A DNA stretch of 64,000 nucleotides from Amoebophrya sp. A120 (GCA_905178155.1 CAJINV010000006.1:3284437-3348436); one strand, 5' to 3'. Positions 1-64,000 are shown, numbered from the stretch's first letter. Numbers and translations: made by a program. The notes: generated by a model from the sequence alone, not told the origin.

Positions 1-3000
1 AACGTGAAGAGGCGGTGGCAGATGGAAGTGTAAATGTAAATGATGTTGACGCCGGCGTCGAAGGAGCAAAAATGAAGGAGGCAGCACGACCCAAAGCGAC
101 GTCAGTATCACCTTCCGCCGATCGGGATCAGGAAGTTGACGGTCGTGCAGCGAAGGGAGGTGTCGGCCAGCAGACCAGTTGTGCTGTTTTCGCGTCACAG
201 AAAAATGATGGTGATAGGAGTCCAGCAGCTGCAGTTCCTGAAGCAGCCTCAGGACTACAAGCTGCCGACCCGTCAGCACGGAAAAATACTTCTGCCGAGA
301 GCCACGAACTTGAACAACCGAAGCACCGGCCCAGCAGTCAATCCTCCGGAGCCAGTTTGGAGATCTTGGGCGAAACCAAACCAGATAGCGTCGATGCTTT
401 ATCCAGCAAGAAGCCCCCACTTCTACCCCCGCAGGTACAGCAGCAAGACGAAACGGTCGGGCAAGTCGACTCCGCCGGTAGGCTGATATCAAATACAAAT
501 ATGTCTGGGTCTGGAAGAATGCAGGAGTTTGTCATGCAGATTAAGCATGACCCATGAGATCTGTGATGCATGCCCGAGCATCACAGGTTTTGAGCAGGTA
601 CCCCAATGCCTAATCCGCATGACAAATCCCCTCTTTCAGTGACAAGAAGCGGGTCCTTTTGCTGGCGGTGCATGACAGATCTCGGCATGCTGTAGAATTC
701 GCATCACAATTTCGAATCCTTCCAGACCCAGACACATTTGCAATGCATAACTGAAGGGCGCGATCAAAAAGGCGCCGGATAAGGTTTTCAAAAATTTGAA
801 ATTCCTATGCACCGCAAAAGTATCGTACTAGTAGGAATCGCATCACAAATGTCCTCAGCATGAGAAATGAAATTTGTCATGCGGACGCAACGTGACAGAA
901 AATTTTGTAATGCACAAATGCGATTACTCTTACTGCGCGATGCTCTTGCAATGCATAACTCCACGATTTTGGCAACGTGCTGATTATCGAGGCCTGCACC
1001 TTTGACAAAAAAGAACTGGCTATGATTTCCTGGCGGACGTTAGGCGGAAGTGTGGAAGCCGGGTGTATCTGTAATCGGAAATATGTGAGCCTGGATCTGT
1101 TTTTCAAAAGAGAAGAGGAGGCGGATTTTAGAAAAAGAAGCAGAGCTGGGGCAGAAGTACTCAAGAAGCGCGGAGATGGTCGGGGCACAGAAGGAGAAGA
1201 AGTAGAAGACGGCGCGAAAAAATTGCAGCTTCTACCCGGTCGTGGCCCGCCCAGCGGCCACGACGACAATTCCACCTCTCCAACTGAGCTGTTCCCCGGT
1301 TGCCACGAGGTCCCCATTCACCTTCCCTTCCGTACTGCCAAGCACGCGGGAGACGAAATTTGTCCCGCCGTGCTGCAGATGGCCGCGTCGCAGACGGCGA
1401 TGTTGTACGCATTTGAGCTGCTGGTGAAGTATCAACTGTAAAAATGTCTGGGTCTGGAAGAATTCATGTTTGTCATGCTTGTCTGGCATGACTCTTAAAT
1501 CTGTCATGGACGTTATCCAAGAGCTCCGTTTTTCTGTGAACCAGAAGCGCAGTTTGTCATGCAGAATAGGCAACACCTAGGAGCTCAGAAACTTGTCATG
1601 CTGAGCCAGCATTTGTAGCCTCATCACGAGACGCCACCCAGCATCACAAGTTCCCAGACCCAGACACTTTTACTTTTGATATGAAGCGGTTGGAGCCAAA
1701 TTTGCTTTTGAGCTACGACATCCCGGAGGGCCTGGGGCTGGTGATGTACCACGGGAGGAAGGAAAACATGCAGGTGAGACTGTCGAGAGTGCCCGCGGAG
1801 GAAAGAAGTTTCATCAATCCTTCTTTCGTTGCTGCTAGTGGTGGTGCTGTGGGACGACCAGGGACCGGAACAGGCGGTCCGAGGCCGGGGGGCGTGCAGC
1901 AGGTAGGCTTCAACCGAGGTGGTCAATTTTCAGGACTAGGACAACATCAAACTGCACCGATGCAGCAGTTGAACCAGTTTGCACAGCAGCTGCCTTACGG
2001 CAGTTCCTTCCAACAACAGCGTCCCACGATAAGCCGCGCTCCTTCCGGGGCTGCAGTGGTGGAAGTCGCAGCTGCAGGTTCTTCTTTCGCGTTTTCCCGC
2101 CAGACAGCTCATATCAAGCACGAAGGCCGTGATCGTGTAGAACAAACTTCCTTTCTCAACCAGGACAAAGAGGCCCTCAACGGAGATTTTAGCCAAGCGT
2201 CTGATGAGGACAACCAGAACCATTTCAAGATGATAAGCAATTGCAATACAAATTCTCGCACACGACGTATAAAATGCATCACAAATAATAGAAATAACTT
2301 CGCCACGTGACAACTTGGAGTGTTGTATACACTTGTCATGCGAGCCAGGAGCGAAGGCAAGGTCTGTCATGCAGCAGCCGCATTTGTACGTCGTGTGTGG
2401 GAATGAATGAATTTACAATTCATAGATGAAAGGACTGAACAACAACACGTCCTCGTCCGGAACGGAGAACGACAATGACATCTTCTATCACAGTGCACTA
2501 CTCCCCCTCCCCCCCATTTGTATAGCATGAACGGCACCACAAGCCTCAGCAACAGTGCCGGTTTCGCATGACAAATTTGCACTGGATTTTACTGCTATTT
2601 GGGCTAGTACCAGAACAACATGTCATGCAAACAGGAGTGCCAAGAAGCAAGAAAGGGTGGCTAGTGTATTTTGCATGACAGATGAGGGGGAGGTGGAGTT
2701 GTGCAGTGTCACAACCGCAACAACGCAAACAAAAACGACTCCGACAACGACTCAGATGACGAGAAAACTTTCCACGCGAAATACCCCGCGGAAAAATTAA
2801 CCGGCGGTGTGCAACTGAAGGGAAGATTGACTTTCAGCCTGTGGCGGGTGCTGCGGAAGCAGGCCAAGCTGCCGAATACGGAACTGAACACCGCCTGTGA
2901 GCAGCTGGTTGGGGAAAAATTTCCCACGTTCAGCAACGAAACGCTGAAAAAGTATTGCGAGCGCCCGGAGTTAGCGATTCACGCGATTCGGTACATGATA

Positions 3001-6000
3001 TGGATTGCAAAAGTATCGTACTATGTATGAATTGCATGATCACAAATCATGTTTGCAAGAAGAAAAGTGTGATTTTTTGTAATGCTGGTTTACCTAAAGT
3101 ACGGGTTTTGCTTGCCCCCTGCCATAGCCATTACTACGAGTACGATATGATTTTTCCAGTGCATACGCGATCCGCAAGTGCAACGCTTCGTTTAACATTC
3201 TGCAATCCATGGACTTGATGCAGAAGTGCGCCGAAGTTTCCCGGTTGCTTGGCGTGGACTTTTTCTCGGTCTTGTCCCGGGGCTCTCAGTTCCGAGTTGA
3301 GTCGATTTTATCCCGGGCGGCGCACAGCGACAAATTTGTGCTGCTGACGCCAACGAAAAATGACGTGCGGAACCAGCGGGCGCACGAATGTACGCCTTTG
3401 GTGCTGTATCAAAATGAAAAATCCTCCTCCCCATTCTAAAACGGAGATTTGTGTAGCATGATTTGCTACCACAAATCATGTTGTCATGCTAGAAGGCAAA
3501 CGATCGATGCGGACTGCAGTGCTGGCTGGCGTGGGAAGGCCTTGCATCTTTCGCATGCCCGGAGGCAATTCCAAGTGGTAAACAGCATGACAAAAATCCA
3601 GGCCACAGCTGCGTCTCTTGGCCTTCTAGCAATACAAGTCGACTTGTATACGCAAATCCAGCATCACAGACGTCCCTTTCAATATAATGGGGAGGGGGGT
3701 TTTTTCCTCGCAATATTCTGGAGCCGAAGTCCGATTTCTACTACGATCCGGTGCTGATTGTGGATTTTCAGTCCCTCTACCCCAGTATTATGATTGCGTA
3801 TAACATGTGCTTTTCGACTATGGAAGTGTCAGAATCGAAACTGACAAAGTCGAACAATTTGTAAATGCATAAAATCGATACCAGTTGGACTTGGAGCTTC
3901 AGTTAGCAAGTGGCCCATGACAAATTTCGCAAGCACCCACATCCAGCCTGTCATGCTGTTTGGGCAAAGAAGACTGCTGCTGTCGTGCTACTCTGGCAGC
4001 GAATCGCCCCCCCTAAACAGGCTTGCAATCGGTCTCATTTGCGTGCTCCCCAACACAGGCCACACGTGCCCTACATGTTACGCATTACTTTTCGATTCTG
4101 ACGCTTCCATATCGACCTGTATTGGCAGACTGGAAAACGCGGGAGACAGGATTATGGAGGATAACATTTTCCGCAGGACAAAGTTCGACAACGACATGCG
4201 GGGCGGGCCTAAGAGCGGAGCCGACTTTGAAAGCAAAAGCGGGGCAGAACAATTTCTTGGAGGTGACAAAGACCACAAATTTGACGAAGATGAAACAGAT
4301 AAAAGCAAAACCAACTTCCCTAACTGGATCAATCGATTGGTAGAGCAGTGTCTACGCGAAGAGCTGGTAAGGAAGGCCAAGATGAAAGCTACTTCAATAG
4401 AGCAAAAAGAAAATCCCGAAGATGACAAGTCCGATGACGACGACCCGACTCTGAAGGAAGAAGTCCAGTATCTTTTGCAAAAGTATCGTAATCGTAGTAG
4501 TCGCAGGTATGCATTACAAATCGAGTTGGTTAGGTAAACCCGCATTACAAATTTGATTTGTAATGCAGAGGCAATTTGTATTGCGATTTTTACTTTGTAC
4601 GATACATTTCCAGTGCATATCCAGCGCTTTCTTACCAAACCGCGGAAGCTCGGTTGTCTGCAGGACTACAAACCGAATAAGAACGCAGATCTAGACTCCA
4701 CGATCGCTCTACGCAATACAAATTTATTGCCGTACACGTACAAATACAAAGAAAAAGCATACACAATTTTTCGGTCATGCAATTTGTCATGCTGAGTAAG
4801 CTTGCTGGAGGCGTGGGTGTCGAAATAGAGCAGCTGTATTGTCAACATGCATTTCCTCCAGATGCATTTGTGCGTGTACGGAATAAACTTTCCTGTTGAT
4901 CCAGTCTCCCGAACGGCGCCATTTTTATCCAGCATTTCAAAGGCGTGGTCACGAAGATTATGCAAGAAAAAAACTGTGTAAGTGTAAATCTGTGACGCAG
5001 AAAATGCAAAACAGTTACACTTGTCGCGCTGGACACGCATCAGAGGCAATTTTCGTGCGTTTTTTCACGTACTAGCTGCGCATGACAGGTTTTCTGTGTC
5101 ATGCAGAGCAAACTTGTGATGCTATTTTTCTCTTAAGACACTTACACTTACACAGTTTTTTTCCTGGATAAAGATGATTCACGAGATTCTGCAAACCCGA
5201 ATCATGCTGAAAAAATCGCTGAAGCTCCACCGGTATCAAATGCAAAAATGTCTGGGTCTGGAAGATTCATCTGAGACTTGTCATGCACGGCGTGCGTGAG
5301 CTATGATGTCTGTGATGCATGCCCTAGCATCACAGGTCTTTTGAGGGGTTCTTGATGCCTATTCCGCATGACAAATGCCCTCTCCGCGTAGCAGAAATTA
5401 GAGCCCTTTTGCTGCTCATGCAACACAAATTTTTTAGACATCCAAATGCAGCATCACAAGTTGCATCCTTCCAGACCCAGACACTTTTGCATTTGATAAC
5501 CGGAAAGCGAAGAAGTCCGACCCGGATTTGGAGCGGCTGTTGGAAGCCCGGATTTTCGGATTGAAAATGGTCGCAAACGTGACCTTATGAATTGCAAAAG
5601 CGAATCGTACTCGTATAAATGCATTACAAATTCTCACAGCATGAGAAATAAAATTTGTAATGCGGAGTTACCTTGAGAAAAAAATTTGTGATGCACGACT
5701 GCAATTTTTACTACGAGTGCGATACGTTTGCAATGCATACACCTACGGCTACATCGGCGCGGCGTACTCTGGCCGAATGCCGTGCTGCGACTATCCTCTG
5801 CAAAAGTATCGCACTCGTAGTAATCTTCACAGTCATGCAAGACAAATTTCTTTTTCAAGCTAAATCAGCATGGCAAATTCCATTTGTCATACTGAGCAAA
5901 TTTGTAATGCGATTTCTACTAGTACGATGCTTTTGCATTTCATAGCGACGTTGCCGATGCGATTGTTTACACCGCACGAAGGACGCTGGAGGATACCATG

Positions 6001-9000
6001 CGGGTGATCGAAAGGGAGTTCAAAAACTGCGAGGTGGTTTACGGTGATACCGATTCGGTTTTCGTCCGGGTGAAAAACTGCGACTCTTTGAATACGGCGT
6101 TTAACACGGGCGAAGCCATTGTGCGGAAAATCACTGAGCGGCACCCCTGGCCCATGGAGTTGGAGCTGGAAAAGGTGTACTGGCCGTGCTGCCTGGTGTC
6201 GAAGAAGCGGTACGTTGGTTACAGCTACTCTTCCAGGGACCAGAAAGCCCCTTCGTTTGACGCCAAGGGGATTGAGACGGTGCGGAGGGACAGCTTATGA
6301 CAGTGCACAAGAACTCCCCCTCCCCTTCATTTGTATTGCACGAACAGCAATACAGACACGCCCACATGTGGAGCCTGTGCATGACAAGTTCATGCGCCTA
6401 GTGTAGTACTGTTAGGGCTCCTTCCGGAATCTGTCATGCACACAGTACCAAGCAGCAGCGCTTGGATTTGGTATTTTGCGTGACAAATGAGGGGGAGAGG
6501 GAGTTCTTGTGCACTCTCATACAGCTGCCGCTGGACGCAGGAGAATATGAAGAAGGTTTTGGAAATCATGTTCTCCGGGGTCCAGGAGCATCTCTGGGGG
6601 AAGATGGAAGGGATTAGTTTGGATAAAGAAGGAGATGACCAGGAAATAAACAACAACAAAAAGCAGCAGGTTGAAAAGAATCATGATCATCCAGACTATC
6701 TCGCTGAAAGCTCGCATGACAAGTTTTACGACGAGCCAGTGTCGTGGAAACGGAAGAAGTTGAAGTTGCAGCAGCGCAACGTGAAACTAGCGAAGCAGTT
6801 TTTCCAGGAACAGGCACTGAGGATCAGGAACAACGAAGTTTCGAAGTCCGACTTGCTGTTCTACAAAGAAACCAGAAGACTCGAGGATTACGCGGTGCTG
6901 CCAGTTCATGCGTACATTGTAGAGAAATCGAAACTGATCCCAAATAAACGTGTGCCCTACGGTATGCATTGCAAAAGTATAAATCGTTGTACCTACTAAA
7001 CTTAGCGGAAATGGCATGACAACTTTCCTCAGCATGGAGAAATGCAATTTGTAATGCGGTTTTACGACCTTGACGAGACGTACATTTATAGTGCATCACT
7101 GCGATCAGGATTACTGCGGGTACGAAGATGCTTTTGCAATGGATATACGGGATCTCCGAGGGGCACGGGCGGTTACTGGATAAAGCCCGGGTATGGAAGC
7201 TTCAGGACTGAAATCGTCAAAGTTGAAATAGTTTGTAATGCATAAAATGGGTGAAAGTTGTAACCCAGTTTCCAAGTGCCGCATGACAAATTTGGGTAGG
7301 GCCGAAATCCAGTCTGTAATGCTGTTTGGGTAAGGAAGACGCCGGCTGTCATGCTACTTTAGCAGCGCAGTTTCTACCCCTCCACAGGCTTACAATCTGC
7401 CTCACTTGCCTACTCTGCAAGACAGGCACATTGTGGGCTGCGCTTTATGCATGACAAATCATCTCAACTTTGTCGATTTCACTCCTGATACATCCATACC
7501 GGGCGCCGAAAAACTTCGTCTACCCGGACGCGGAATATTATCTGCTGAAACATTTGATCCCCGCACTGCAACGGCTTTTCACCAACATATGACAGTACAC
7601 AACTCCCCCTCGTCATTTGTAGGGCATAAACAGCATTACAAACACCAGTAGAGGTGGACCCTGTGCATGACAAGTTCATGAGCCGAGTGTAGTACTGTTT
7701 TGATTCCCAGCGGAATTTGTCATGCACGCGGTGCCACAGGGTAGCAAGTGAGTTTGGGTTTTTGCATGACGAATGAGGGGGAGTAGTTGTGCACTGTCAT
7801 ACAATATTGGGGAGGACGTGAAGTCCTGGCTCCCGATCAAGCACCGGAACCTGCTAGCGCCCGCGAAAATCCTCGGCGGGTTGCAGCTGAAGCCGGGGCC
7901 GTTGGTGAAGTTATCACAGGAAACAAGGAGTGTATACAGTTGCACATGTGTTGGAATTTCTGCATCACAAAGTTGTTCGACATGGCCAAGAAATAAACCT
8001 GTGATGCGCAGACTACAATGGAAAACACGCACGAAATAAGGCTGGCAAGCATTTTCTGCATGACAGAGGTTGTCTGTCTTGCGTGTCTTCCATTACAGTG
8101 TGTAACTGTAACACTTTTTTCTCACGATACAAGTTCTTGAAAAAGCAGTGCACCGTTTGCAAGGCGGTGATTTTGCCTGAGGCGAGTGCTAGTGCAGCTG
8201 GCGGGAAGATGCGGGAGAAGCAGATGAATCCTGCAGGAAATAAGACGAACAGCAAGATGACCACTTCCGGCCTGGTTCTCGGGGAAGGTTTATCGGCTGT
8301 GCAACTGTGCCCCAAGTGTTTGGAGCATCCGGAGAAGCTGTTGCGCATGATAGGATCTGGGGTTTCATCAACATCTGCTGGCACGACAAGAAGTGCGATC
8401 AGCAACGCAAATTCGGTGCAGGCGTATGAACTGCAAAAGTATCGTACTCGTATAAATGCATCACAAATTTTCTCCGCATGAGAAATAAAATTTGCCACGC
8501 TGATTTACCTTGAGAAAAATGTTTGTAATGCAAGAAGTGCATTTATACGAGTGCGATACTTTTGCACAGGATAAGACGCTTTATTCAACAATAAGAACTA
8601 CAGCAACGACGAACAATATCGTTGGGCAAAAACTGCTATCCTGTGCAAAAGTATCGTACTCGTACTAGTAATTGCATTCATGCATAATTACAAGTCGTCT
8701 CCCTAGTCAGAAATCCGCATTACAAATTCAGATTTTATTTCTCGTCATGCTGAGGAAATTTGTAATGCATTGTTATACGAGTGCGATACTTTTGCATTGC
8801 ATAGCTGCAAATGCGGCAGGAATTGAAGGATATCGAGGACACAACATGCGCCGACTGCGTCCAAGCCCCGCACCCGATGGTATGCATTGCAAAAGTATCG
8901 TACTAGTATAAAAAATGCATTACAAATTTCCTCAGCAAGAGAAATATATTTTGTAATGCGGATCTACCTTGAGAAAAAGATTTGCTTTTGCAATGCATGA

Positions 9001-9373
9001 TTGCAATTGCTACGAGTGCGATACTTTTGCAGTGTATAGATGGCACAGCTCTGCGAAAGTTTTGACTGCGCGGTGTTGGTATGGATTGCAAAAGTGTCTG
9101 GGTCTGGAAGGTTGGAACCTGTGATGCGCATTTCAGAACACACAAAAATCTCGCATGCATAGGTAGCAAAAGCTGCCCACTTTCTGTCACCAAAATGGGG
9201 GATTTGTCATGCGGGTTCGGCATTGCGCAAGCTTCTCGAAACCTGTGATGCTAGAGCTTCCATGCCAAACCTTCCGTGTCATGCACAAACAGCATGACTC
9301 TTCCAGACCCAGACATTTTTACATTTGATAGTTGGGAAAAAAAGCGCTGCTGTGCGAGCTGAGTGGATTGTAG
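1..9373 (+). CDS. REV3: DNA polymerase zeta catalytic subunit (family B), 5'-truncated by window, 23 introner introns
   Basis: Hand-splicing gives VLSRGSQFRVES, EPKSDFYYDPVLIVDFQSLYPSIMIAYNMCFSTCIGR, LKMVANVTYGY..SGRMPC, VVYGDTDSVFV, ELEKVY..KKRYVGY, FDAKGIETVRRD, RVPY, EYYLLKHLIPALQRLF and C-terminal Cys clusters (CTVC, CPKC, CADC, CESFDC); stop TAG 9371-9373. Confidence 0.95.
487..749. mobile_element. Introner family A (TIR ..TGTCTGGGTCTGGAAG)
   Basis: TAT..ATA TIRs, TSD gctga/actga, removal gives RLKGAIKK. Confidence 0.9.
806..957. mobile_element. Introner family B (TIR ..AAAAGTATCGTACT)
   Basis: TSD attcc/actcc, removal gives LKFHDFG. Confidence 0.9.
1430..1681. mobile_element. Introner family A
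   Basis: Perfect TSD tgaag; LVKRLEP restored. Confidence 0.95.
2234..2424. mobile_element. Introner family K, left end eroded (TAA)
   Basis: Perfect TSD gatga, frame restored. Confidence 0.85.
2486..2713. mobile_element. Introner family E (CAGTGCAC..CTCCCCCTC), right end eroded
   Basis: TIR visible, TSD decayed, removing element+5 nt restores frame. Confidence 0.8.
2999..3165. mobile_element. Introner family B
   Basis: TSD catga/cgcga, frame restored. Confidence 0.85.
3407..3715. mobile_element. Introner family C (AAAAATCC..CTCCCC)
   Basis: TSD tgctg/ttctg; PLVLEPKS restored. Confidence 0.9.
3819..4111. mobile_element. Introner family D (TATGGAA..TCAG)
   Basis: Perfect TSD tcgac; FSTCIGR restored. 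Confidence 0.95.
4469..4619. mobile_element. Introner family B
   Basis: Perfect TSD tccag. Confidence 0.95.
4710..4903. mobile_element. Introner family K, both ends eroded (boundaries approximate)
   Basis: Inner TIR ccgtacacgtacaaat/atttgtgcgtgtacgg; lies between STIA and PNGAIF. Confidence 0.7.
4959..5170. mobile_element. Introner family G (AAAAAACTGT..)
   Basis: Perfect TSD aagat; TKMIHEIL restored. Confidence 0.95.
5234..5498. mobile_element. Introner family A
   Basis: Perfect TSD accgg. Confidence 0.95.
5586..5739. mobile_element. Introner family B
   Basis: TSD gacct/cacct; NVTYGY restored. Confidence 0.95.
5792..5944. mobile_element. Introner family B
   Basis: Perfect TSD gcgac; PCCDVADAIV restored. 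Confidence 0.95.
6296..6521. mobile_element. Introner family E
   Basis: Perfect TSD cagct; RRDSCRW restored. Confidence 0.95.
6963..7145. mobile_element. Introner family B
   Basis: Perfect TSD tacgg. Confidence 0.9.
7192..7498. mobile_element. Introner family D
   Basis: Perfect TSD ccggg. Confidence 0.95.
7588..7801. mobile_element. Introner family E
   Basis: TSD caaca/caata. Confidence 0.9.
7912..8129. mobile_element. Introner, G-like
   Basis: TSD gaagt/caagt; VKFLKKQC restored. Confidence 0.85.
8425..8573. mobile_element. Introner family B
   Basis: TSD aggcg/agacg. Confidence 0.9.
8637..8803. mobile_element. Introner family B
   Basis: TSD actgc/gctgc. Confidence 0.9.
8881..9038. mobile_element. 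Introner family B
   Basis: Perfect TSD gatgg. Confidence 0.95.
9080..9330. mobile_element. Introner family A
   Basis: Perfect TSD gttgg. Confidence 0.95.
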
Positions 9374-10227: not shown

Positions 10228-10959
10228 ATGCCCTGTTTCTACCACGCCACCTCTTGGCGCAACGCCGAGAGCATCGACAGTAACGGCTTCGTCATTGGAT
10301 GGGGCGGGCTCGCCGGCCCGGGAGTGTACGTTTGCGAGACGGAAGACCAGGCCTGTCGCCGTTGCCGGGGACCAGCCGATATGAATTTTGCAAGAGTACT
10401 ATCGTATGTAGGGGTAATTGCATCACAAATTATTTGTTATTGTTCAGCATAAGAGAGCGAATTGGAATTTGTAATGCGGATTCGGCGTCAATAAGAGACT
10501 TGTGATGCATGAATGCAAGTACTACGAGTGCGAAACTTTTGCAATGCATAACCGATGTGGTTTTCCAGGTGCGGACGTGGTATTGGCCTGACGCGGCGCC
10601 GGTTCCGGGAAACTACATTATTTACATATCAACTGCAAAAGTGTCTGGGTCTGGAAGATTCTAAACTTGTAATGCTGTCGCTGGATTCATCTAAAAACAT
10701 TTGTATTGCATGACCAGCAAGAGGACTCCAGTTTGTGCTACACGGACAGGGCATTTCTCATGCGGTAGAGGCATCACAAAGTCCTCTAGCAATATGTGAT
10801 GCTAGGGCATGCATCACAGACATCATGGGTCATTCAAAATATGCATGACAAACCTGGCAATCTTCCAGACCCAGACACTTTTGCAGTTGATATTACAACC
10901 CGAGCCACGAAATTCAGTCCTATCGGTGGTATTGGGACTGCCAGCATGGGTATTCGTAG
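10228..10959 (+). CDS. 94-aa minimal ADP-ribosyltransferase/PARP-fold (Gig2-like) protein, 2 introners
   Basis: Spliced MPCFYHATSWRNAESIDSNGF..GGLAGPGVYV..GNYIIYNPSHEIQ..; YHxT, GF, GxGVY and YIIYNP follow the HYE-clade ART pattern. Confidence 0.7.
10380..10550. mobile_element. Introner family B
   Basis: TSD gccga/accga. Confidence 0.9.
10627..10892. mobile_element. Introner family A
   Basis: Perfect TSD ttaca. Confidence 0.95.
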
Positions 10960-29226: not shown

Positions 29227-29326
29227 NNNNNNNNNNNNNNNNNNNNNNNNNNNNNNNNNNNNNNNNNNNNNNNNNNNNNNNNNNNNNNNNNNNNNNNNNN
29301 NNNNNNNNNNNNNNNNNNNNNNNNNN

Positions 29327-51454: not shown

Positions 51455-54400
51455 ATGAGTGGAATGTTCAATTCCCTGTACCAAACCTACCACGGAGCAG
51501 TTGACGCGATCATCAGACTATGGAGCGAAAAAAGTTTGTCACAGTCACTAACTTGCAGGTTTTGCATTACAAATTTTCTCAGCATCACAAAGAACTTTCA
51601 CTAAACTTTCCTTGTATTGCAGAAACACTAGGGAAATCCCTAATGAAGTTCGGCTGTGATGCATTTTTACGCATGACAAACAATTTTGTATTGCAAAAAT
51701 GCGCATGAGTGATCGTGACGAACTTTTTTTCTTTGATACAGACCCCCGAGGGATCAGTACACGTTGGATGAGCTCGGGCCAAAAAGATTCCGGAGCGGCA
51801 CGACCGTCTGGCACAGGAAGGACCTCCAACTCTTCAACGAGCGGGGCCACAAACTCCAGTGCTCCCACTACCTTCCGTACAACCTCTGCGAGGGCATTGT
51901 GAATTCCGCCGCAGCAGCACGGGCAACGTCCTCCACCGGTAGTGCGCCTGGTGCTGCGGGAGCAGACACATCTACTGCGAGTAAAAAGCGGCAAGTCGAG
52001 CGATGGCCTTGCGTCGTGTACCTGCACGGGAACTCTTATGGAACTGTCAGGATTGAAATTGACAAATTTGAAAAATGTGTGATGCATAAAACCGATACCA
52101 GTTGAAAGCCCAATTCCTAAGCGGCGCATGACAAATTTCGACGTCATCGAGATCCAGTTTGTCACGCTGTTTAGCAAAGGAAGGCATCCTTTGTCATGCT
52201 ACTTTAGCAGCTCTATCGCAAACCCAAAACAGGCTTACAGTCGGCCTCACTTGCCATCCCTGCAAGAGAAACACTTCATGCCTTGCCATTTATGCATGAT
52301 AAATTATCTCAACTTTGACGATTTCAATCCTGACACTCCCATAACCCTTCTTCCCGATTGGAAGCGATGGGCGCGTTGGAAGTCGTCTTGCCCCTCCCCT
52401 GCACGCTGTTTTGCCTAGATTTTTCCGGAAGCGGACTCTCGGACGGGGACTACGTTTCTCTATGCATTGCAAACGCATCGTACTAGTAGTAAAAATCGCA
52501 TTACAAATTCGGTCACCGTGACAAAGGGATAAATTTGTCATGCTGTTTTTCCTTGGGATGGAAATTTGTGATGCATGATTGCGATTACTACGAGTGCCAT
52601 ACTTTTGCACAGGATATTCTCTGGGGTACTTTGAAAAGGAAGACTTGAAAATCGTGATCCAGTATTTGCGAAGCACAGGCTACATCGGCAGCATTGGCTT
52701 GTGGGGAAGATCGATGGGCGCGGTCACGGCTCTGCTTCACGCGGATCGGGATCACTCGCTGGCGTGTCTGGTAAGTGTATTTTTTGTTGTGATGGTGGAA
52801 TTCCGTCTTGCAAGAACTACACAACTGATGCAGTTTGTCATGCACAGTACCAGTGTGAGTACCTCCTGCAGGCACGACCTGAGTTGTTGATTCAATTATC
52901 CCACGTGTGTCAACAAAGGTACTCGACTCCCCCTTCACCCGGCTCCGGACGCTTTGCCAAGAGTTAGTGGAAAACGGGGAGTATCTTGGGCTAAAAGCCG
53001 GCATGCTCACGACCATGATTGTCGACGGTGTTATCCAGGAAAAAACACCCATCCCCATCAATTTTTTGCATGACAAACACTGCAGCTTATGCATGTTTTG
53101 CATGACATCAAATTGGATGAGTATGGGTGTTTTTTTCCTGGATAGGTGTTCTCCACTTCCTCCGTGGGACCGTCAAAGAGCGCGCCGGGCTATGCAAAGC
53201 GAAAGTATAAACTGTATTGGTGTGAAATAGCATTACAAATTCATTTTTTTTCTAGCAGGAGATGGAGGTGGATTTTCTGATGCTGAGGTATACTTAGTTA
53301 AAGAGCGAGATTTGTCATGCAGTGTTCCCATTACTATTTACGATTTATACTTTTGCAATGCATACGGGTTTGAAATCGACGATTTGCAGCCGATCGAAAA
53401 CGTCTCGAAGTCCTTTGTCCCGGCATTCTTTCTCGCGGTATCCTGTGCAAAAGTATCGTACTAGTAGGAATCGCATCACAAATTGGCTCAGCATTACAAA
53501 TTAAATTTGTAATGCGGATTTCCCTTAACATCTAGATTTGTAATGCATGGTTGCGATAACTACGAGTGCGATACTTTTGCACAGGATACGCGGGCGCAGA
53601 CGACAACTTCATCTCCCCAAACCACAGCCAGCAACTTTACGATTTGTATTATTTGGAGTTTTGTTTATAAAGATTTTGTCATGCAGTTTGTCCCATGACA
53701 TGGGCGATTTTCGTTTTCCTCGTGAAGGAGCCTCGCATGACAAACTCAGCAATCTTCGCATGCTTCTACAGGTATGCCGGCGAAGACAAATACTACCATG
53801 TGGTCGAGGGTGCGGACCACAATAGCCCCAGGCCGAGGGACGTGTATCCTGTTCAAAAACGTCACCACCCCGATTTTTTCATGCAGATTTGCAATTACAG
53901 GAACGCTTGTAATGCGCCTCCCCAAGTGAGGCACAACTTTCCGTCGTGTTTTGGCATTTGTGATGCTGGAAACAGGAGAATGGGATTGATTTGTGATGCG
54001 GGTGCCTTTGCTAACCTTCACTACAATAGAGAGACGAGAAACTTGTCTTGCTTGATTGCCAAAACTTCGTGAGCTGTGTTGCAGACTATCCTGCCTGACT
54101 CTGGGGCGGGGGCGACGTTTTTACACACGATAACGTGCAAAAGAAGATCACGAATTTTCTGCGGGACGCACTGCAGGACCCGGAGACCCGGAACATGATT
54201 AGGATGGTGGATTTATCACAGGAAAAAGCGTATAAATGTAATTAACGGAGTTTCTGATGCAATAGCAATGGCGCACGCAGAGCCACTTCGTGTTGTAAAT
54301 TTGTATTGCTTGTTAACATGCACGTTGGTCCATTTTTTCATTTTTCATGCATGGGTGGCATCTCCGAAAAAAAACCGTTAATGTGAACTACACTTTTTTG

Positions 54401-56905
54401 GCGGATAGAACTGGGAGGAAATTGTAACGGACGCGGCCTTTCCCTTCCTCGTCCCACCACAGGAGCAGCAAGGTGGTTCCATTTCTTCAAACGGAGCAAA
54501 TGTGAAATTCAATCAGCAGCCAAGCAAGTCTATCAACTGCAAATATGTCTGGGTCTGGGAGATTGCGAGACTTGTCATGCCGGTCTGACATGACTGTGAG
54601 CTCTGTATTGCGCGCCCGCGAAGAGGTCCTCTCTTCTGTCATGCAAAAACGCAGCTTTTCATGCGTAGTACGCAACTCTAAACCACGGAAAAACTTGTCA
54701 TGCTGTGGAGCGCATTGCAGTGTGCTTACTATTCCCTTCCTTGCATCACAAGGCTCCAGACCCGGACATGTTTGCATTTGATAAAGTTTTTACAGCAAAA
54801 TAACGGCGGATCGTCAGACGGAGCCACTATTTCCGGCGCCCAGGTCGAAATGCCGCCGGGGTTTCGGTATGAATTGCAAAAGTAACGTACTAGCATGAAT
54901 TCAAATTGCAGCAATACAAAATGGCTCAGCATTAATGCAGATTTGCCTTAGGAACTAGATTTGTAATACATAAAATGCATTTGATACGACGAGTGCGATA
55001 CTTTTGCACAGTATATTCGGGAGGTGGAATCGCGATCCCGGCCGGGGACGACGGTGTACGAGGATATTGAAACCAAAAGAAGGTATATCCATTGCAAATA
55101 TCGATCTGGGTCTGCTGGAAACTTGTGATGCTGGGTGGCGTATCATGAGGAGGCCACAAGTGCTGGCTCAGCATGACAAGTTTCTGAGCTTCTAGGTGTT
55201 GCCTACGTATTCTGCATGACAGGCTGCGTTTATTTTTCTGCATAACAAAAAATAAATGGAGCGCTTCGGGAACGTGCATGACAGATTTAAGAGTCATGCC
55301 AGACAAGCATGATAAACATGCAAACTCTTCCAGACGCGGACATATTTGCATTTGATAAGTTACGGCTCCATGCAGCAAGCCTGGCGGGCCTACATTATGA
55401 AAGCCTCAGAATGGAAATTCTCCAAGTGGAAATAATTTGTGATGCATGAAATGCGACACCAAAAAGACTGCATTGCAGAGAACGCAATGGAGGCCGACTA
55501 TTGTGCTTCTACGGGTTCATAATTGGGCTGCTGAGTAGCACGAGAGAAGGGCACCCCTTTGCCTAACTAGCATGACAGACACGTCGTTTTGAGTGCCCGG
55601 GAAATTTGTCATGCGCCGACTAGAAATGGTGCTTCAACTGGACGAGTCTTTTTTTTGGATTACAAATTATTTTCACTTTGAGGATTTCCAACCTGAGGCT
55701 TTCATATACGTGCTAAAGGACGGAGTCACCGGCTCGCCGTTGACGCAACAGCGAGGTAGTTCGGGACCCGTCGGAGCAGGCAGCGTCGGTGCGACCACGA
55801 CCGTTGAGAATCCTCTGAACATGATCGCCGGATCCAGCGGAAGCCCTGGTGCGAACGGACACGCTGGGACGACAGTACCAGCACCAGCCGCAGCTCCACA
55901 CCAGTTGCAATCTGGCGGCGCAACGAGTAGCACTAGTAGCGCGGCTGCAGGACCACAAGGGGGTACTAGCACAGAACCACAAGTAGATCACGCCGCAGTA
56001 GTTTTGGACACCCTTCCCCAAGCGAGGCCCGGGGGCTACCGCCGGCCACTCGCAGCGAACGACGTAAACGTCGTGAACAAGCAAAATGCAGAAACAACCG
56101 GGCCAGAAACTACTGCTGCGACCAGAGTTTCCAACCAGAGCTCAGGTTTACCGGAACGAGGGATACATAAGCAGGACTCAGTAAACACAACAGGCTCGGT
56201 AAACCTCTTCCCAAACACAGGGATAAGCGCCAGCAACTTCCTATCAATTGCAAAAGTATCGCACTCTTATAAATGCATTACAAATTTTCTCAGCATGAGA
56301 ATCTGTAATGCGGATTTTCCTGAAGAAAAAGATTTGTAACGCAACAAGACTTGCATTTATACGAATCCGATACTTTTGCACAGGATACTTCCAACAAAGT
56401 TCTTCCTCCGAAGACGACGACAACAGCGGGCAGAATTACCAGCTACGCATTACAGAAGTATCGTCTTCGTATAAAAACGCGCATGACAAATTTCTTCTGA
56501 AGGAAAACGGCAGTTTGTCATGAAGATTGAGCCATGGAAGAGCAAGTGTAGATCTGTCATGCAAAACAGCCATTTCATCGACCAGTCCGATACTTTTGCA
56601 TTGTATACCAGCAGATGCTCGACAACCTTCCCTCCGTTGAGGAACTGTCCGCCCAAATGGCGATGTACCATGCGGGACCGCAGGAATTATCGAGCAGCTG
56701 GTCGGTCGTTGAGCTGAAGGAGCTGGGCTTTCCGGAACAGAGCTGCGAGGAAGCAAAAGCAAATGGCCTGTCTTTTGAGGAAGCTGTGGAGTACTGCGTT
56801 TCCCGGAGCAGTGTGGTAGCGAACGGCGGGGGAGCAGGGGGAGCGGAGGGGGAGTTTGACCTTGGGGAGGTAGAAAGAGGCAGCGGACGGGACTCGGTCA
56901 CGTGA
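51455..56905 (+). CDS. Alpha/beta-hydrolase with C-terminal UBA-like domain; 14 introners + 2 canonical introns
   Basis: AIIRPPR, VVYLHGNSSSR, LDFSGSGLSDGDYVSLG, LWGRSMGA (nucleophile), VLDSPF, DDNFI, GADHNSPR; tail LKELGFPEQSCEEAK..FEEAVEY. Confidence 0.9.
51519..51738. mobile_element. Introner family F
   Basis: Perfect TSD cagac. Confidence 0.95.
52037..52343. mobile_element. Introner family D
   Basis: TSD actct/accct. Confidence 0.9.
52461..52616. mobile_element. Introner family B
   Basis: Perfect TSD ttctc. Confidence 0.95.
52771..52918 (+). other. Canonical GT-AG intron
   Basis: GTAAGT...AAAG; removal gives ACLVLDSPF; no TIR. Confidence 0.9.
53032..53144. mobile_element. Introner family I (AAAAAACACCCATCC)
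   Basis: Perfect TSD ggtgt. Confidence 0.95.
53191..53364. mobile_element. Introner family B variant
   Basis: TSD cgggc/cgggt. Confidence 0.9.
53439..53588. mobile_element. Introner family B
   Basis: Perfect TSD cgcgg. Confidence 0.95.
53646..53771 (+). other. Canonical GT-AG intron
   Basis: GTATTA...CTACAG; removal gives LYDLYAGEDK; no TIR. Confidence 0.85.
53845..54132. mobile_element. Introner family J
   Basis: Perfect TSD acgtg. Confidence 0.95.
54214..54407. mobile_element. Introner, G-like
   Basis: TSD ggatt/gaact, frame restored. Confidence 0.85.
54531..54783. mobile_element. Introner family A
   Basis: TSD aagtc/aagtt. Confidence 0.9.
54868..55015. mobile_element. Introner family B
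   Basis: Perfect TSD ttcgg. Confidence 0.95.
55086..55357. mobile_element. Introner family A (reverse of 1430-1681)
   Basis: TSD aggta/agtta. Confidence 0.9.
55396..55706. mobile_element. Introner family H (reverse of 47933-48237)
   Basis: TSD tacat/tacgt. Confidence 0.9.
56242..56387. mobile_element. Introner family B
   Basis: Perfect TSD cttcc. Confidence 0.95.
56444..56607. mobile_element. Introner family B (left end TAC)
   Basis: Perfect TSD ccagc. Confidence 0.9.
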
Positions 56906-59536
56906 AGAGGTGAAGAGCGGTCGTATAATTGAATTGCCGGCTACTTCGTCCTGGTGACAATAGGAATAGTCCTGGTCGTGCAGCTACATCGCCGAACAGA
57001 ACTTGTTGTACACGATTGTCCACCAACATGAACATGATCTCAGACGAAGGCTGCAATTTGAAGGCCTTCCTCGAGAAGCTGCTGCTGCAGACATGACAAC
57101 AATAAAAACGTCGAAAACAATACAACAAAAACGAGAACTCCTCTTTTTCAGCCCCGCCGTTTATACTTAACCACCTTGCCTTCACCACTGACGACTTCCG
57201 AAGCCATTAGCATCAGTTGTACCAGTTGCGCGACCAGCGTCATCGGCTTTTGCAGAGCGAGCGTTTGTAATGTTCAACGACGGTTTTGCTACGCCGATTT
57301 TCATCAATATGATCACCGTTTCATACATTTTCCCAGTCCTTCGCTATCTTCGCGTTTCCAGAAATAGATGCTTTCAAAGTTTCTACCTTTTATGCTTATT
57401 CTAGACCAACAAGCAGCGTTGGGGAAGCTCAACAAGCGACAGATATTTTTATCCACGACCTAGCCCTGAATTATGATTATCCTGAGCCGTACATCACTTC
57501 TACACAACTTCTAGCGCCACCTCCCCCTTTATTACACTGCCTTTACTTGCGGCCGCCGAGTATAGTTCTCGAATTTATCTTTTTAAATCTCGTGACCATG
57601 AGGGGAGATATGTTGAAGTACTGTTGTCAAGATTTTGGAGAAGATCTTCCATGTGCTTCAGAAGATTTTTGAGCTTTTTTCGTCGAAGCATCGATCACGA
57701 CAGAAACGATGACGTCGATGTCGACTCGGTCTTGGAAGAGATGAAAGACAACGTCTACTACTTTGCAGCTCGAAAGATAAAGGTGTTCGCCGAGGTCGAG
57801 CCTGTACTTGGTGAGCGCATCGAGCGCTGGATCGAGGGCGAGAGGAGCATGAGTGACACACGCGGGTTGCTGTTGGCCACGCGCTGGTGGTTTTTTTTTT
57901 CGGGTAATGTATATAGATACGCTCCGAACATCAGATCGAGACGCGCGAAGCGCCCCGCTGGTCAGCCTGGGCGGTGTGGGCGGGCTACGGCCTGGCGGCG
58001 TGAGATTGTGGGCGCCCGCGCGTTTCGTTCCTTCCTCGGGCGGTAGAGCCCGACCCCGCCTGGCCGGGTTCCCGCGCCCGGCCGGCGCGAAAGAAATAGG
58101 GTGGAGCGAAAGGGATGCGTGGCGGCCGTGAGGCGTGCGATTCATTTCCCGGAGCCGGAGGGGCGCGAATCGGGGCACAACCTGCGGCGCGAGCCGGGGC
58201 GGCATGTCTCCAAACCGTGGCCAAAGCCAGGGGCCTCGCCCTATAGGCGGCCGGATTACGCTTTTGCAACGAGGAGGGGCGCAGGGTTGTGCGGCCGGCC
58301 CCAGTTGTGCCGCTCCGCCCGCGTGGCAGCCTGGTTGGCACGGGGCGAGGCCGCCCGGGCCGGCGGGAAAAGGGGCCCAAGCCCACGACAGGGCCTCGGC
58401 CCGTTGCGCGAGCTGAATGGCGCAGAGCAGATGGGTGATGGGTAAGGATTCGCGCACGCGAATCGAATGGGCTACCCTTTGAGGCCGCGCCGGCCCCGCC
58501 CCATTTTTTTAGATACTAGCAAGCCCGCCGCGGGGCGCGCGGGCCGCCCGGCCGGCCTTGGAGCTGAACTGTGCTGGGCGATTGGCGATGAGCCGGGCTC
58601 TGCCTTTGGGAGTCAAAAACTGCGGAAAAGCGTGCCCCTACCTTATCGCCTTGCTTCGGTGCTTGTTGGTTCTGGGCCGAGGAAGTTCGTGAGATTGTTC
58701 GCCGGGCTCTGAGAGTTCGCAGCGCCCCCGCTTTTCTCCTGCGTTTGCCATGCTGGTGAGGGCCTTGCCCGTAGTTGTCGGCGTCTTGTTCCCGCGGGTC
58801 GAGTGGGTTATCCTTTGGGGCCACGCCGGCCCCGCCGGCCCCCCCCCCCGCCCCCCCATTTATATCTTAGCAAGCCCGCCGCGGGGCGCGCTTTCGCTCT
58901 TTTATGATCTTGCCACTCCGCGCGCCGTGGCTGGCGCAGCCGCCTGCCGGCTCGCTTTGCCCCCGGCCCGTTCGTTCCGCGCCACCGGCGCAGGCGGTGC
59001 GTTTGGGATCTATTTGGTGGCGCCCCGCCTGCAGCCGAGCGGCTAGCTACGCATCAATGTCTTTCCAGAAGCAGCGCCAGCTCCGTGTGTGGGCGAGTGA
59101 ATTGCTGGCGCAAAGAGTAAGGAGCACGGGCGCCCGCGCTCATGAGTTTTTCTATGTGATTTGTGCAGTGGCGCTTGCGCTTCGTGCGTTGCGTTCTCTG
59201 GGTAGTGCACTCGCCTGCCGTTCGTTTGTTATTTCGTGGATTCGAGGTGATTTGGTCTCATGAGGTGTGAGAGCTCCAATTCCATCCATGAATTTTGTAT
59301 GCAGTTTTTTGGTTGATGAAATGAGGGCCAAGGCGTTTTGTAAAAATTCGCCTTCCGACTCCGACAGTGGTCATTCATTCGCCCACATATCACGACTCAT
59401 CCGACAAGACCACGGATAGGACGAAGATAGAGAACGAAGTTAAGATACAGAGGCATTTCCTACATCTAGCTCTTCGCCATTTGTTTTAGTCTGTGCCACT
59501 GCTCAGAGGAGTACACAAAACCTGAATCAAACCAAG

Positions 59537-62500
59537 ATGCGTCGCAACCAGGTGCCGACCCTGCGTCGCCCTGCCCCGCAACACAAGCGTGTTTTACAGC
59601 GGGTACCAACGCCGCTGGGTCCCGGGGCGATGGGCAGTGCGGAAGACTGTGCGAGAACTCCGGTAGCGGAGAAATTGCTTCCGAAGGACGACGAGCAGGC
59701 GGATCATTCTGTTGCCATGCCGGAATGGCAGGGCAACAACGTCGACGTCCCTTCCTCCTCCTCTTCCAGTAGTAGTTCCGCGGCTGGACCAGGAATAAAT
59801 CAAGCAGAATTAGTACATCAAAGCGAAAAGGAAAACAGAAATCCTGGTGGTGGTTCTGGTGCTGACCAGGAGAATCTTCTCAACGGCGCTGAAAGAACGA
59901 GCTACGTCGTGAAAAAACTCACCTCGCCTTCGAGAAACGTCCTGAGCACACAAAGTTCCGTCGCAAACGTCCCACCGGAAGATTCGAAATCTGAAGTAGA
60001 AGTGGTCAAGAAGAAGCGCACCCTGCAGCGCTCTTTCTGGCAAAAAGAACTACACGCCAATAACACGTGCGACACACCGTATCAAATGCAAAAAATGTCT
60101 GGGTCTGGAAGAATGCCAGACTTGTCGTGCAGGTTTTCCATGACCCATGAGGTCTGGTATGTAGGACAGAGCATGACAGATTCTGTGAGAGTTCTATCAA
60201 TATCATGCCTATCCTGCATGAGAAAGTGCCTCGCGGTTGGGTCAAAAGTGGACAGCTTTTGCTAATCACGCAACACAGATTTTTACATGATTCAGATTTA
60301 GCATGACAAGTTGCTTTGTTCCAGACCCAGACATATTTGCAATGCATACACCGGAAGTAGATGCGAGTAAATTTTTGGCGAATAGGAAGAGTGGGGACAA
60401 CTTGACCGACTTGCTGAAGAGCAACGAGCTGATTTCCACGAAAAATCAACCGGCGAAACGACGTACGCATTGCAAATATTATCGTGCCTACTAGTATGAA
60501 TTGCATAATACAAATTTGCTCAGCAGGAGAGCTGGAATTTGTCATGCTGTTTCACCCTAAGGACAAGATTTGTCATGCATAGTTGCAATTAGAAGTACGA
60601 CGAGTGCGATGCTTTTGCAATGCATACGATGCCGCCCGAGTTTATCCACAGAAAAAAACCCATCCACATCCATTTTTTGCATGACAAACACATGATTTGA
60701 TACGTGTTTTGCATCACTAATTGGATGTGGATGGGTTTTTTTCTGTGGATAGAGTTCCAACTCCCACAGTCCGGCGGGTAGAATGAAGACGCTGTATGAG
60801 GAGGAGGGAGATGATGTTGACAGTGGTAAGCAGGAGGGCGAGATGAAGAAAAAGTCCGATAAAAACGGTTCTTGTGCACCACCAGCTTCCGGCATCGCTA
60901 TCGGAAGCAAGAAGCTGAAGCCGTCGGTCAGCAACGACGGCATGTTGACATCAAGCTTCGACCCCACAACAGCGGCAGCGGTGTTTGATTTGAAGAACAA
61001 AAATCCGAATTACGACCCCCGCAGAACAACAACCACAAGTGCGAGTACGAGCAGCTGCAGACCGAGCCCACCGGGGGGCTCCGATGATCGACGCCGGACG
61101 CCGGGCGGTGGAGTTAGTAGCGGAGGAGGATTTTACACCGGTAATAGCAATAGGTCTACTTTTGGATCTTCAAGCGGGCACAGAAGGACGAACAGAGATC
61201 TTTATCAAGATAGAGACAGGGAAGATAGACGCTACGATAGAAGCAGAAGAGACCATGACAGCAGCACCTACCGCCACCGCGATTACGATAGCGGGTCCCG
61301 CTACGGACGAGATTACAGCTGGCGTGGAGCTGATACAACTGGTGAGCGCCTCCGCGATAAGGGCCACGGCAGAGGTGGAGGACGGGATTATGATTATAAT
61401 CGGAGCTACGGTACTAGTTCTTACCGGGAGCGGGATAGAAGCTTTGTCGCCCGCGACGATCGGGGGAGCAATAGAAAAAGTGAAGATCTAACAAGATCGA
61501 GAAATGAAGAGAACAGCAGGTCGTGGGGAGAACGCGGCGCAAGAGGTGGTGGTGGGAGCGCTGGTACTTCTGCCTCTTCTCGTCCCGACGGGCGGCACGT
61601 CGGGAGTACTTCTAGTGGGGGCTACGGCAGAAGTAGAAATGGGTATGATGATAGCTGTGAAATAAATCAGGAACAGCTGCGAAGCGGTCGCGTTCACTAC
61701 AAAGATTCATCTTCGTCCTCTGCTTTTCATCGTCCGAGGATTAAGAACGAAACTGCCGGTGAAGACGAGAAAGCTTCTGGCGTCGACGACAGAAGTGGTT
61801 GTGCCAACAAGGCGTCGGAACATCTTCACCAGAGCAGCAAAGCTGAACATCATGCACAGGAGGAACAAGGGGATCAAACCAAATTCGAATCCGAAACTGC
61901 AGGTCCGCCTGCTTCTACGACCAGCGCAGTGCAGCACCTGAAAGAAAAGCAGCCGAACAGCCTGAGTCCCCGGGAGTACCAGTTTCGAGAGGAAATCAAC
62001 ACGACGAAAAACATATGAGCTGCAAAATTATCGTAGTAATTGCAATCATGCATGGCAAATCTCTCTCTGAAGGGGAATCCGCATTACAAATTCCATTTGT
62101 CATGCTGGCCAACTTTGTGATGCGATTTGTATGTACCAAGTGCGATACTTTTGCAATTCATAAAACAAAGGGTACTACAACCGCAGACGTTGTGATCACA
62201 TAGGAGGTGAGCAGCCACAGATTCTGAAGGAGGAAAAGCCGGTGATTTCACCGGGAGATGAGGTGGAATCTAAAATTTCAGCAACAGCAGGTGCAGGGAA
62301 CAAGCAGGCTCAGGAACGCCGTTTGGAGGGAAATTATGACAAAAACGAACCGCACGACCACGAGCGACGACCCTCGTCTCTGAAAACAGAAGCAGATGAG
62401 GAAGAGCCGAGGTTGTACTCGCATTATCAGCAGGTCTTTGACCAGGCGCAGGGACGGGGGAATAATTTCGCGGATTTTCTCTTTTCTGATTTGGTGCAAG

Positions 62501-64000
62501 AACCTGATAGTGAACAAGGGCAGGAACTGCAAGAGACGTCTTCTGCACAGGTAGGGGATGCTAATGCGCCGTCCTCTTCCGGAGAAATAGAAAAGGTACA
62601 GGGAGTAGATGAGCAGCAGTGTCGTGAGCGAGCGACCACCGGTGGTGAAGTAGAAGAAGGCGAATTCGCAGTGGTTACTGCCTGGCTGACAGAACAAGCG
62701 GTCGCGGGCGAAGCTGCGAAAGTTGCCGACGAAGTGACAGCAGTGGGAGGAGATGCAGGGATCATCGTGGCTGCAAGCGATAATCCTCTCGCTGCAGCAG
62801 TGGTGAGGGTGACTACAGGCGAAGTGGGAGTTGTTCCTCTGCAGCACGACAATATTGAGAGTGCACTCGAGCAAGAACCACAGATGAGCGACGCCATAAA
62901 AGGTACATCGTCCGAAATATTAGATGAGGATAGCCAGAAGGCACCAGTGGGCGGCGGCGCAACTACTACACTTCTAGCGGCAACTGAGAGCACTACAAAT
63001 GACCCCCGCGCGGCACGAGAAGATGTGGGTGGCCGCGAAACGGCTGAGGGTGCGATAAAAGACCAATCCGAGCACGGGGCAGAAGCACCTGATCATGCAC
63101 AAGCGCCACAATTAGCTCCAGCCGCTCCTGCAGAGCCAGCGCAGCTGCAGAAACAAACACAAGCGGAAAACGACGTCGACATGGAAGTTGTGGAAGTAGC
63201 AGAACAAGTGCCGCTGCTCGCGGTGGCTCCTGATAGTACAACGGCACAACTACCACCATCGAGCACGACACCAGCGGTGGATCAGGAAAAGGAGCTGCTG
63301 ACCGCAAATAACGCATGCGCAGCTGCAACACAAGTGGCGGATCATGCGCAGCAGGCGCCAGAAGAAGCCGTGTTCTCTTCTACAAATATAGCGCCAACGA
63401 CTTTTCGACCCCGCAGCAATACGGTGGATGTGGTCACGGGCACCAGTGCCGCTAATGTCACAGCAGCCACATCATCTTCCTCCACCACCGCTGCATCAAA
63501 ACTTGACCACGAAGTGACAGGAGGCGTGTACCCTGTGCAAAGGTATCGTACTCGTACAAATGCATTACAAATTTCCTCAACATGAGAAATAAAATTTGTA
63601 ATGCGGATTTACCTTATAGAAAAAATGCAAGATTGCAATACGAGTACGATACTTTTGCACAGCATAGCGTGAAAAAACCTACAACTTTCAGTCCGGCAAA
63701 CAAGCCAAAATCGCTCAAGCCGCCAAATAGAAGAACCACACTGAACAACTCGTTGAAGAATCTGAACCAGTCGGGAGGACATCAACACAGCACATCCTTG
63801 CAAATTATCGACAAACACACCAACATGCAGTCTATTCGCAACCGAACATCTCTAGCGATCGACAGACTGTTGTCTTCCAGCAAGCTTGGCGGTTACTGCG
63901 AGTTCAAGTCCGCAATTGGGGAAAAGTTCCAGCCACAATACCTGCACGAAAAAGAAGAAACCTTGCCCTGTTACGTGTCCGAAGTGATCTTGCAACAAGA
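59537..64000 (+). CDS. Large low-complexity hypothetical protein (R/D/S-rich and A/E/T-rich regions), 5 introners, runs off the window
   Basis: ORFs 59537, 60783 and 62242 join in frame through short exons; frame stays open to 64000. Confidence 0.8.
60080..60348. mobile_element. Introner family A
   Basis: Perfect TSD caccg. Confidence 0.95.
60464..60626. mobile_element. Introner family B (left end TAC)
   Basis: TSD cgacg/cgatg. Confidence 0.9.
60643..60751. mobile_element. Introner family I
   Basis: Perfect TSD gagtt. Confidence 0.95.
62014..62162. mobile_element. Introner family B
   Basis: Perfect TSD aaaca. Confidence 0.95.
63529..63666. mobile_element. Introner family B (left end TAC)
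   Basis: Perfect TSD gcgtg. Confidence 0.95.

Follow-up and report, generated by a model that had tools for sequence, protein, structure and literature searches.

What do short introns of unrelated sequence share, beyond their ends, that would allow one factor to recognise them all? The question is raised by a window of 64,000 nucleotides (nt) from Amoebophrya sp. A120 (GCA_905178155.1, CAJINV010000006.1:3284437-3348436), the whole of which is analysed here. Its genes are interrupted by introners, short elements that start with TAT, end with ATA, have complementary ends and lie between direct repeats. According to the text of PMC7789003, A120 holds about 30,000 introner copies in about 1,950 families, with no transposase found and with splicing that proceeds without U1. 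An original prediction, made from the sequence of the window, had pointed to a degenerate 8-mer inside these elements, present in all families and both orientations, as the mark of a common trans-acting factor.

An internal motif common to the introner families

Introners were collected with a finder blind to the motif, which required TAT/ATA ends, complementary ends and a direct repeat. Of its 62 candidates, 9 were units of the tandem array and 3 were weak or chimeric, and these were set aside; with 4 others added, 54 elements remained; 13 further elements, rescued by hand and mostly guided by the motif, brought the total to 67. The motif GCATBACA (B being any base but A) occurs 174 times in the window, 84 times on the plus strand and 90 on the minus strand, against a mean of 6.9 and a maximum of 14 in shuffled sequence; the variant with A at the free position occurs once. 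Extended, the consensus reads H-GCAT-B-ACA-RR-T, and position 4 tolerates A. At least one copy is held by 52 of the 54 motif-blind elements and at least two by 44, amounting to 145 copies in 11,687 bp (12.4/kb; shuffle mean 3.9 copies). Outside all 67 elements, the 9 copies in 49,076 bp (0.18/kb) are near chance (shuffle mean 5.2), with none in the tandem array, two in a DIRS-like retroelement and three in GT-AG introns. The enrichment over background, and the rarity in exons, intergenic DNA and the retrotransposon, are as had been predicted. The motif was found in all 18 families defined below and in both orientations; to call it universal is slightly too strong, as the exact motif is carried by 63 of the 67 elements and 4 are without it. 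Among the copies cited by coordinate, those at 5278 (5278/5279), 5621, 7232, 53068 and the exonic 6714 are correct, and 47973 is a one-mismatch copy. The first copy had been placed about 30-50 nt inside each end, which is true for 71 of 134 ends (exact copies, nt 30-55), or for 72% of family-weighted ends with a relaxed motif.

A second set was obtained by scanning metagenome contigs with the family-B end pattern. This gave 143 loci, 142 of which come from one other assembly that is possibly not independent of the window's genome; the sole locus from another collection record (L121) was rejected as a chance match in an open reading frame (ORF). The family-B end pattern had no match in viral contigs, and a triplet pattern had none in viral or prokaryote genome contigs. 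The same finder called 389 elements in the second assembly, 377 of them with the motif; the count includes 12 motif-free calls, five of which were dropped as non-elements before family analysis. Another locus, L076, has thirteen motif copies over 2.9 kb, where the finder called only one element and the longest ORF does not exceed 137 codons.

Constraint on the motif

With the motif masked and a threshold of E<1e-3, 451 elements (the five doubtful calls having been dropped) were grouped into 18 mutually unalignable families and 33 singletons. All 18 families carry the motif, with 2-6 conserved copies each. In within-family pairwise alignments the seven core bases are 87-94% identical, compared with 68% for other interior positions and 63% for the free fifth base, and 105 of 163 motif copies are intact within families as against 633 of 4,854 other 8-mers. 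Private substitutions were scored in 398 elements against an ancestor defined without the test copy. They affect 276 of 7,631 core sites (3.6%) and 2,855 of 33,623 other interior sites (8.5%); the rate in the terminal inverted repeat (TIR), at nt 8-26, is 3.9%. The original prediction had named motif positions diverging as fast as neighbouring bases within families as the result that would speak against it; the core changes more slowly than its neighbours, and the prediction therefore passed this test.

These rates also bear on whether the motif could be a remnant of shared descent without function, or a side effect of palindromic structure. Such an origin would be in keeping with inverted ends TAT-N7-AAA common to all families (end logo of 778 ends), and with terminal nt 4-13 that lie within 2 mismatches of the motif at 43 of 178 family A ends and 127 of 370 family B ends. 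However, the ends of most other families are unlike the motif, the arrangements of copies differ between families yet their spacing is common, and conservation of the core greatly exceeds that of its flanks, while the free base changes as the flanks do. The idea is largely refuted by the last observation, and it now seems scarcely credible.

A spacing of three helical turns

Same-strand copies 31-33 bp apart occur in 15 of the 18 families, at 9.96 pairs per draw compared with 1.31 by random placement. When the families are merged into 11 super-groups, the figures are 6.67 and 0.79 expected (P=0.002 after scanning all spacings), and within the window 31-33 bp accounts for 21 of 77 same-strand spacings. 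Three turns of B-DNA correspond to 31.5 bp. The length of the pair resists insertions and deletions, changing by at least 2 nt in 14 of 156 neighbour comparisons, where other intervals of 20-45 bp do so in 14 of 46, and the spacers have no evident common sequence. Each of two elements in the polymerase gene listed below contains such a pair:

5234-5498: family A element with a 5-bp target-site duplication (TSD), ACCGG; copies at 5279-, 5311-, 5327+, 5366+ and 5451+, of which 5279- and 5311- are a 32-bp pair
5586-5739: family B element; copies at 5621+, 5656- and 5687-, the last two a 31-bp pair

Outward-facing copies cluster 36 and 46-48 nt from the element end. A general 10.5-bp lattice was considered and is unsupported (same-strand spacings minus the 30-34 peak, R=0.24; inward copies unphased).

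Recognition on DNA or RNA

Orientation relative to the host gene was assigned for 335 elements. They lie about evenly with respect to transcription (57:55 and 30:43 in the two largest families), and the sense strand has 423 motif copies in one direction and 460 in the other. Arrays confined to a single strand exist in both directions: 20 elements expose one motif strand to the RNA and 31 the other. The balanced orientation together with these arrays argues against a single-stranded RNA signal, and the strand polarity expected of a single-stranded splicing signal was not found.

The motif could nevertheless act at the level of the pre-mRNA: an RNA-binding splicing factor might recognise it in single-stranded form, or opposite copies might form stems. 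Both motif orientations are present in 339 of 417 site-bearing elements, and in folds predicted for a sample of 70 elements from the two large families, together with all of the smaller families, pairing is commoner at motif bases (76%) than in the rest of the interior (61%). Further, the motif pair in a GT-AG intron at 53646 forms a predicted stem (z -1.9). Against a role in RNA, the folds pair the TIRs (89%) and only 43% of motif copies with another copy, a share that falls to 10% in family 2, whose copies are all on one strand. At the free base, mirrored copies show no covariation (135 of 329; 36% expected), a search of Rfam gave no match, and the lack of strand bias applies here as well. 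We regard action in the pre-mRNA as improbable. Recognition of an RNA duplex, one of two options offered initially, is thus weakened, and recognition of double-stranded DNA (dsDNA) fits best. A common trans-acting factor is supported as well, as are strand-independent recognition and the conservation of the core above its flanks.

Element ends, target duplication and exact removal

Past the first 14 nt, the TIRs of different families have no sequence in common. At position 2, 769 of 778 ends have A. Within an element, the two ends differ at nt 4-7 (34-57% identity versus 79-98% on either side); these positions substitute faster than the interior (12% versus 8.5%), yet position 4 is almost always C or G. 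The third base departs from consensus more often at the sense-strand 5' end (15 of 335) than at the 3' end (3 of 335), in small numbers. The flanking direct repeat is a TSD of 5 bp that favours no particular sequence: 307 of 389 elements match at 5/5 positions and 82 at 4/5 (the finder demanded at least 4), mismatches are distributed evenly along the repeat, and a sixth position is at chance. The alternative of a 4-bp repeat with an additional free base was discarded.

The nature of the TSD bears on the proposal that a tyrosine recombinase, for example that predicted for the DIRS-like retroelement nearby, uses the copies as arm-type sites. Repeated sites of mixed orientation away from the ends, and a recombinase-like ORF at 37130-38134, are compatible with it. 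However, a 5-bp duplication of arbitrary target, with evenly spread mismatches, fits a staggered cut of the DDE type and counts against a tyrosine recombinase; Crypton and DIRS elements are recognised by the absence of such a duplication. Moreover, just 2 motif copies lie in the 9.6 kb of the retroelement, and there are none in its tandem array. This origin of the sites appears very improbable.

The introners of the window are as follows:

487-9330, plus strand: family-B DNA polymerase gene with 23 TAT…ATA introners
487-749, 806-957, 1430-1681, 2234-2424, 2486-2713, 2999-3165, 3407-3715, 3819-4111: polymerase-gene introners, first part
4469-4619, 4710-4901, 4959-5170, 5234-5498, 5586-5739, 5792-5944, 6296-6521, 6963-7145: polymerase-gene introners, second part; 6296-6521 is a family C element, skipped exactly (element plus 5 nt) in a contig of run X3
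7192-7498, 7588-7801, 7912-8129, 8425-8573, 8637-8803, 8881-9038, 9080-9330: polymerase-gene introners, third part
10380-10550, 10627-10892: two elements, both skipped in an X4 contig; the second is of family A, in the orientation opposite to that of 5234
12219-12423, 12734-12897, 13207-13523, 13644-13935, 14016-14376: five elements; in 13644-13935 every motif copy is on one strand, and 14016-14376 has no exact copy and only degenerate sites, yet is skipped exactly
16436-16689, 16744-17077, 18491-18756, 20537-20704, 21338-21642, 21858-22164: six elements, several of them degenerate
40643-40936, 41754-41999, 42094-42347: three elements
45557-45707, 46134-46281, 46517-46693, 47119-47445, 47727-47877, 47933-48237, 48399-48540, 49142-49350, 49411-49641, plus strand: nine elements
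51519-51738, 52037-52343, 52461-52616, 53032-53144, 53191-53364, 53439-53588, 53845-54132, plus strand: first seven of fourteen elements within 51519-56607
54214-54407, 54531-54783, 54868-55015, 55086-55357, 55396-55706, 56242-56387, 56444-56607, plus strand: last seven of these fourteen
60080-60348, 60464-60626, 60643-60751, 62014-62162, 63529-63666, plus strand: five elements

The polymerase gene has a DNA_pol_B match in the exon 5947-6288 and is, from its motifs, presumably REV3-like. Excision of each element plus 5 nt restores its open frame, 1,466 codons at 487-9330, compared with 228-298 when 3, 4 or 6 nt are removed instead. The same excision gives 1,083 codons at 45557-49641 (at most 237 with the other three lengths) and 1,215 codons at 60080-63666 (at most 532). 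Further, four contig joins in runs X3 and X4 span 7 elements, and at each join exactly the element plus 5 nt is missing. These runs are only presumed to be RNA, so that empty-site DNA is formally possible as the source of the skipped joins. A raw RNA run, X9, gave 21 partial reads that were uninformative on removal, and for 45,100-64,000 the evidence for removal is the frame test.

Across the window and the loci, 280 elements lie in coding, 34 in mixed and 10 in non-coding context, almost confining them to coding exons, and nine intergenic or repeat stretches of the window hold none. This bias may reflect targeting, and element-centred sampling may inflate it. The short gene at 21183-22420 has an internal duplication that includes elements 21338 and 21858, which are 87% identical and have decayed TSDs.

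Comparison with known systems

With TAT-N7-AAA ends, a direct repeat at the boundary, many families and exact, non-canonical removal, the elements belong to the already known A120-type introner system, and their lengths of about 110-360 bp fit those given in the text of PMC7789003. That text describes repeats of 3-5 nt, whereas the repeat found here is a clean 5-bp TSD, and it treats terminal repeats only, mentioning neither an internal motif nor a spacing. Both are likewise absent from the text of PMC12130899, the supplement text of both papers, two reviews and the literature searches, figures and some of the supplement lying outside this scope; they are apparently undescribed.

The ends of the elements look integrase-class by sequence. 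A120 introner family 38, a Ginger-like, integrase-like family (PMC12130899, Dataset S2 row 580), is listed with the same 5-bp TSD and TA/TA termini and is also a TIR DNA element that acts as an intron; it is about 810 bp long with integrase-like ORFs, and no element of that length was found here. The TA..TA termini of IS3EU/GingerRoot are shared as well, unlike the 6-bp TSD of GingerRoot and its TIRs of 100-150 bp, and those elements are not introns (as described in the text of PMC10045372 and PMC6839031). In the Ginger1/Ginger2-TDD group, which are not introns either, TDD-4/5 have a 5-bp TSD as here, but the ends are TGT (text of PMC2836005). On the features tested, membership of GingerRoot/IS3EU is ruled out by the 6-bp TSD and membership of Ginger by the TGT ends. 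The word 'subterminal' occurs nowhere in the text of these three papers.

Arrays inside the ends are known from other transposons. A transposase binds sub-terminal repeats of Emigrant/Lemi1, a miniature inverted-repeat transposable element (MITE; text of PMC1636448), and the TnsB sites of Tn7 and CRISPR-associated transposons (CAST) have helical spacing (text of PMC10201428). In both, as here, repeated sites of mixed orientation lie inside the ends and spacing at helical intervals matters; the repeated, conserved sites with constrained helical spacing that define such an array are present here in the 31-33-bp pair. As far as those descriptions go, two differences stand out: the Emigrant/Lemi1 repeats are half of the element's own TIR, whereas here one motif spans families with unrelated TIRs, and the array here, unlike either precedent, runs through the whole element and appears in host GT-AG introns. 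The nonconventional introns of Euglena (text of PMC12501133) are likewise non-GT-AG with paired ends and direct repeats. Their code, a CAG/CTG pair placed close to the junctions at set distances, contrasts with the internal, orientation-free array described here.

What reads the array

On balance, we lean towards the motif being a sub-terminal dsDNA binding array for one shared integrase-like DDE transposase, or its cofactor, that would serve all introner families; a sub-terminal transposase site had been among the options first raised, and the sequence features above lend it support. As the families have no TIR sequence in common beyond the first 14 nt, a common specificity signal would be needed, and a shared motif array would explain how one machine could move families with unrelated inverted repeats. 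Cutting would take place at the TAT-N7-AAA end, and base pairing of the inverted repeat specific to each family (about nt 8-28) would hold the intron ends together in RNA. The motif itself would confer sequence specificity, pairs three B-DNA turns apart placing protomers on one face of the helix. Motif-bearing GT-AG introns would be domesticated relics.

Several observations weigh against this reading. Neither an autonomous copy or transposase nor any element over 420 bp was found in 471 kb of loci plus the window, and Farhat et al. found no transposase in A120 (text of PMC7789003). Helical phasing to the element end has P=0.004 with 18 families and 0.03 after scanning periods, but is not significant with 11 super-groups (P=0.09) and was therefore given no weight; inward-facing copies are not phased to the end. 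Even in the most diverged copies the core persists, changing about one third as fast as the interior, and ten copies labelled non-coding, the labels being weak, lose it faster (14 of 213 versus 170 of 4,658, P=0.04). Finally, the motif is carried without TIRs by both frame-verified GT-AG introns of the window, which lie in the gene at 51519-56607, where their removal along with the elements gives a frame of 763 codons instead of 472:

52771-52918, plus strand: canonical GT-AG intron, no TIR, one copy at 52836-
53646-53771, plus strand: canonical GT-AG intron, no TIR, outward-facing pair at 53677- and 53735+, centred about 35 and 33 nt from the ends

A crude GT-AG gene finder called 133 introns, 94 of them internal and 44 of these without TIR-like sequence. 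The motif is in 12 of the 44, at least 3 being mis-called elements, compared with 1.9 in shuffles, and one TIR-less intron (L014:2225-2328) holds an intact 16+16-bp triplet (> < >). Another GT-AG intron with the motif and no inverted ends is in L024 (sense position about 6258). Two of the four TIR-less, motif-bearing introns (52771, 53646, L014, L024) have an identical layout, with the forward copy at 42 and the reverse at 58.

Since these four introns bear the motif at introner-like positions, they favour an alternative, namely that a protein of the host recognises the array on dsDNA or chromatin and flags the stretch for removal, during transcription, by a spliceosome that lacks U1. One factor may then serve both splicing and mobility. 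A mark of this kind would likewise work in either orientation, and it agrees with the 31-33-bp pair. The persistence of the core in diverged copies, its faster loss in copies labelled non-coding, and the 280 elements in coding as against 10 in non-coding context are in its favour, as is the report that U1 was undetected in A25 and A120 (text of PMC7789003). We consider it unlikely, though a serious contender, and the same holds for its corollary that introners retain the array because the array makes them removable. One concern is that elements with a single weak site exist (54868, 16744) and that the degenerate-site element 14016 is skipped exactly. Further, 32 of the 44 predicted GT-AG introns have no motif, and a strong site is found in 446 of 451 elements as against 9-13 of these 44 crude predictions. 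In copies with a mutated TSD, moreover, the core decays more (odds ratio 1.41; other sites 1.32), and the TIR does not (1.02), a contrast that also counts in favour of mobility. The motif had been put forward as the best candidate in the window for an undescribed intron-definition system. This role is not established, because weak- or degenerate-site elements are still removed and 32 of 44 GT-AG introns are motif-free; what does stand is that some TIR-less GT-AG introns keep motif and spacing.

Other features of the window

The remaining features are not introners:

23940-29420: tandem array beside the retroelement, about ten near-identical 528-bp units
29400-38710: DIRS-like retroelement
31352-33637: gag-like ORF of the retroelement
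34660-37266: reverse transcriptase ORF of the retroelement (weak RVT_1 match)
37130-38134: tyrosine-recombinase-like ORF of the retroelement (Atlas match; no Pfam match)
38430-38715: part of the 528-bp unit, recurring at the other end of the retroelement, with assembly gaps at both places
58000-59050: GC-rich stretch (69%) with internal repeats, unlike its surroundings

Implications

The motif bears on two questions, namely what moves the introners of A120 and how they are spliced without U1. A motif of fixed spacing that is common to every family provides a defined bait and defined mutants, so that both can be tested directly. Should it prove to be a transposase array, a single enzyme would serve families whose TIRs are unrelated, and the motif could also help to mark introners for splicing. 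It is a good deal less probable that a host protein reads the helically spaced dsDNA array during transcription and marks the intron in place of the missing U1 small nuclear ribonucleoprotein, and we are as doubtful that introners spread through exons by means of such a mark, which some GT-AG introns would have kept after losing their inverted ends. Were it true, intron definition would be written in DNA, a new way to define introns.

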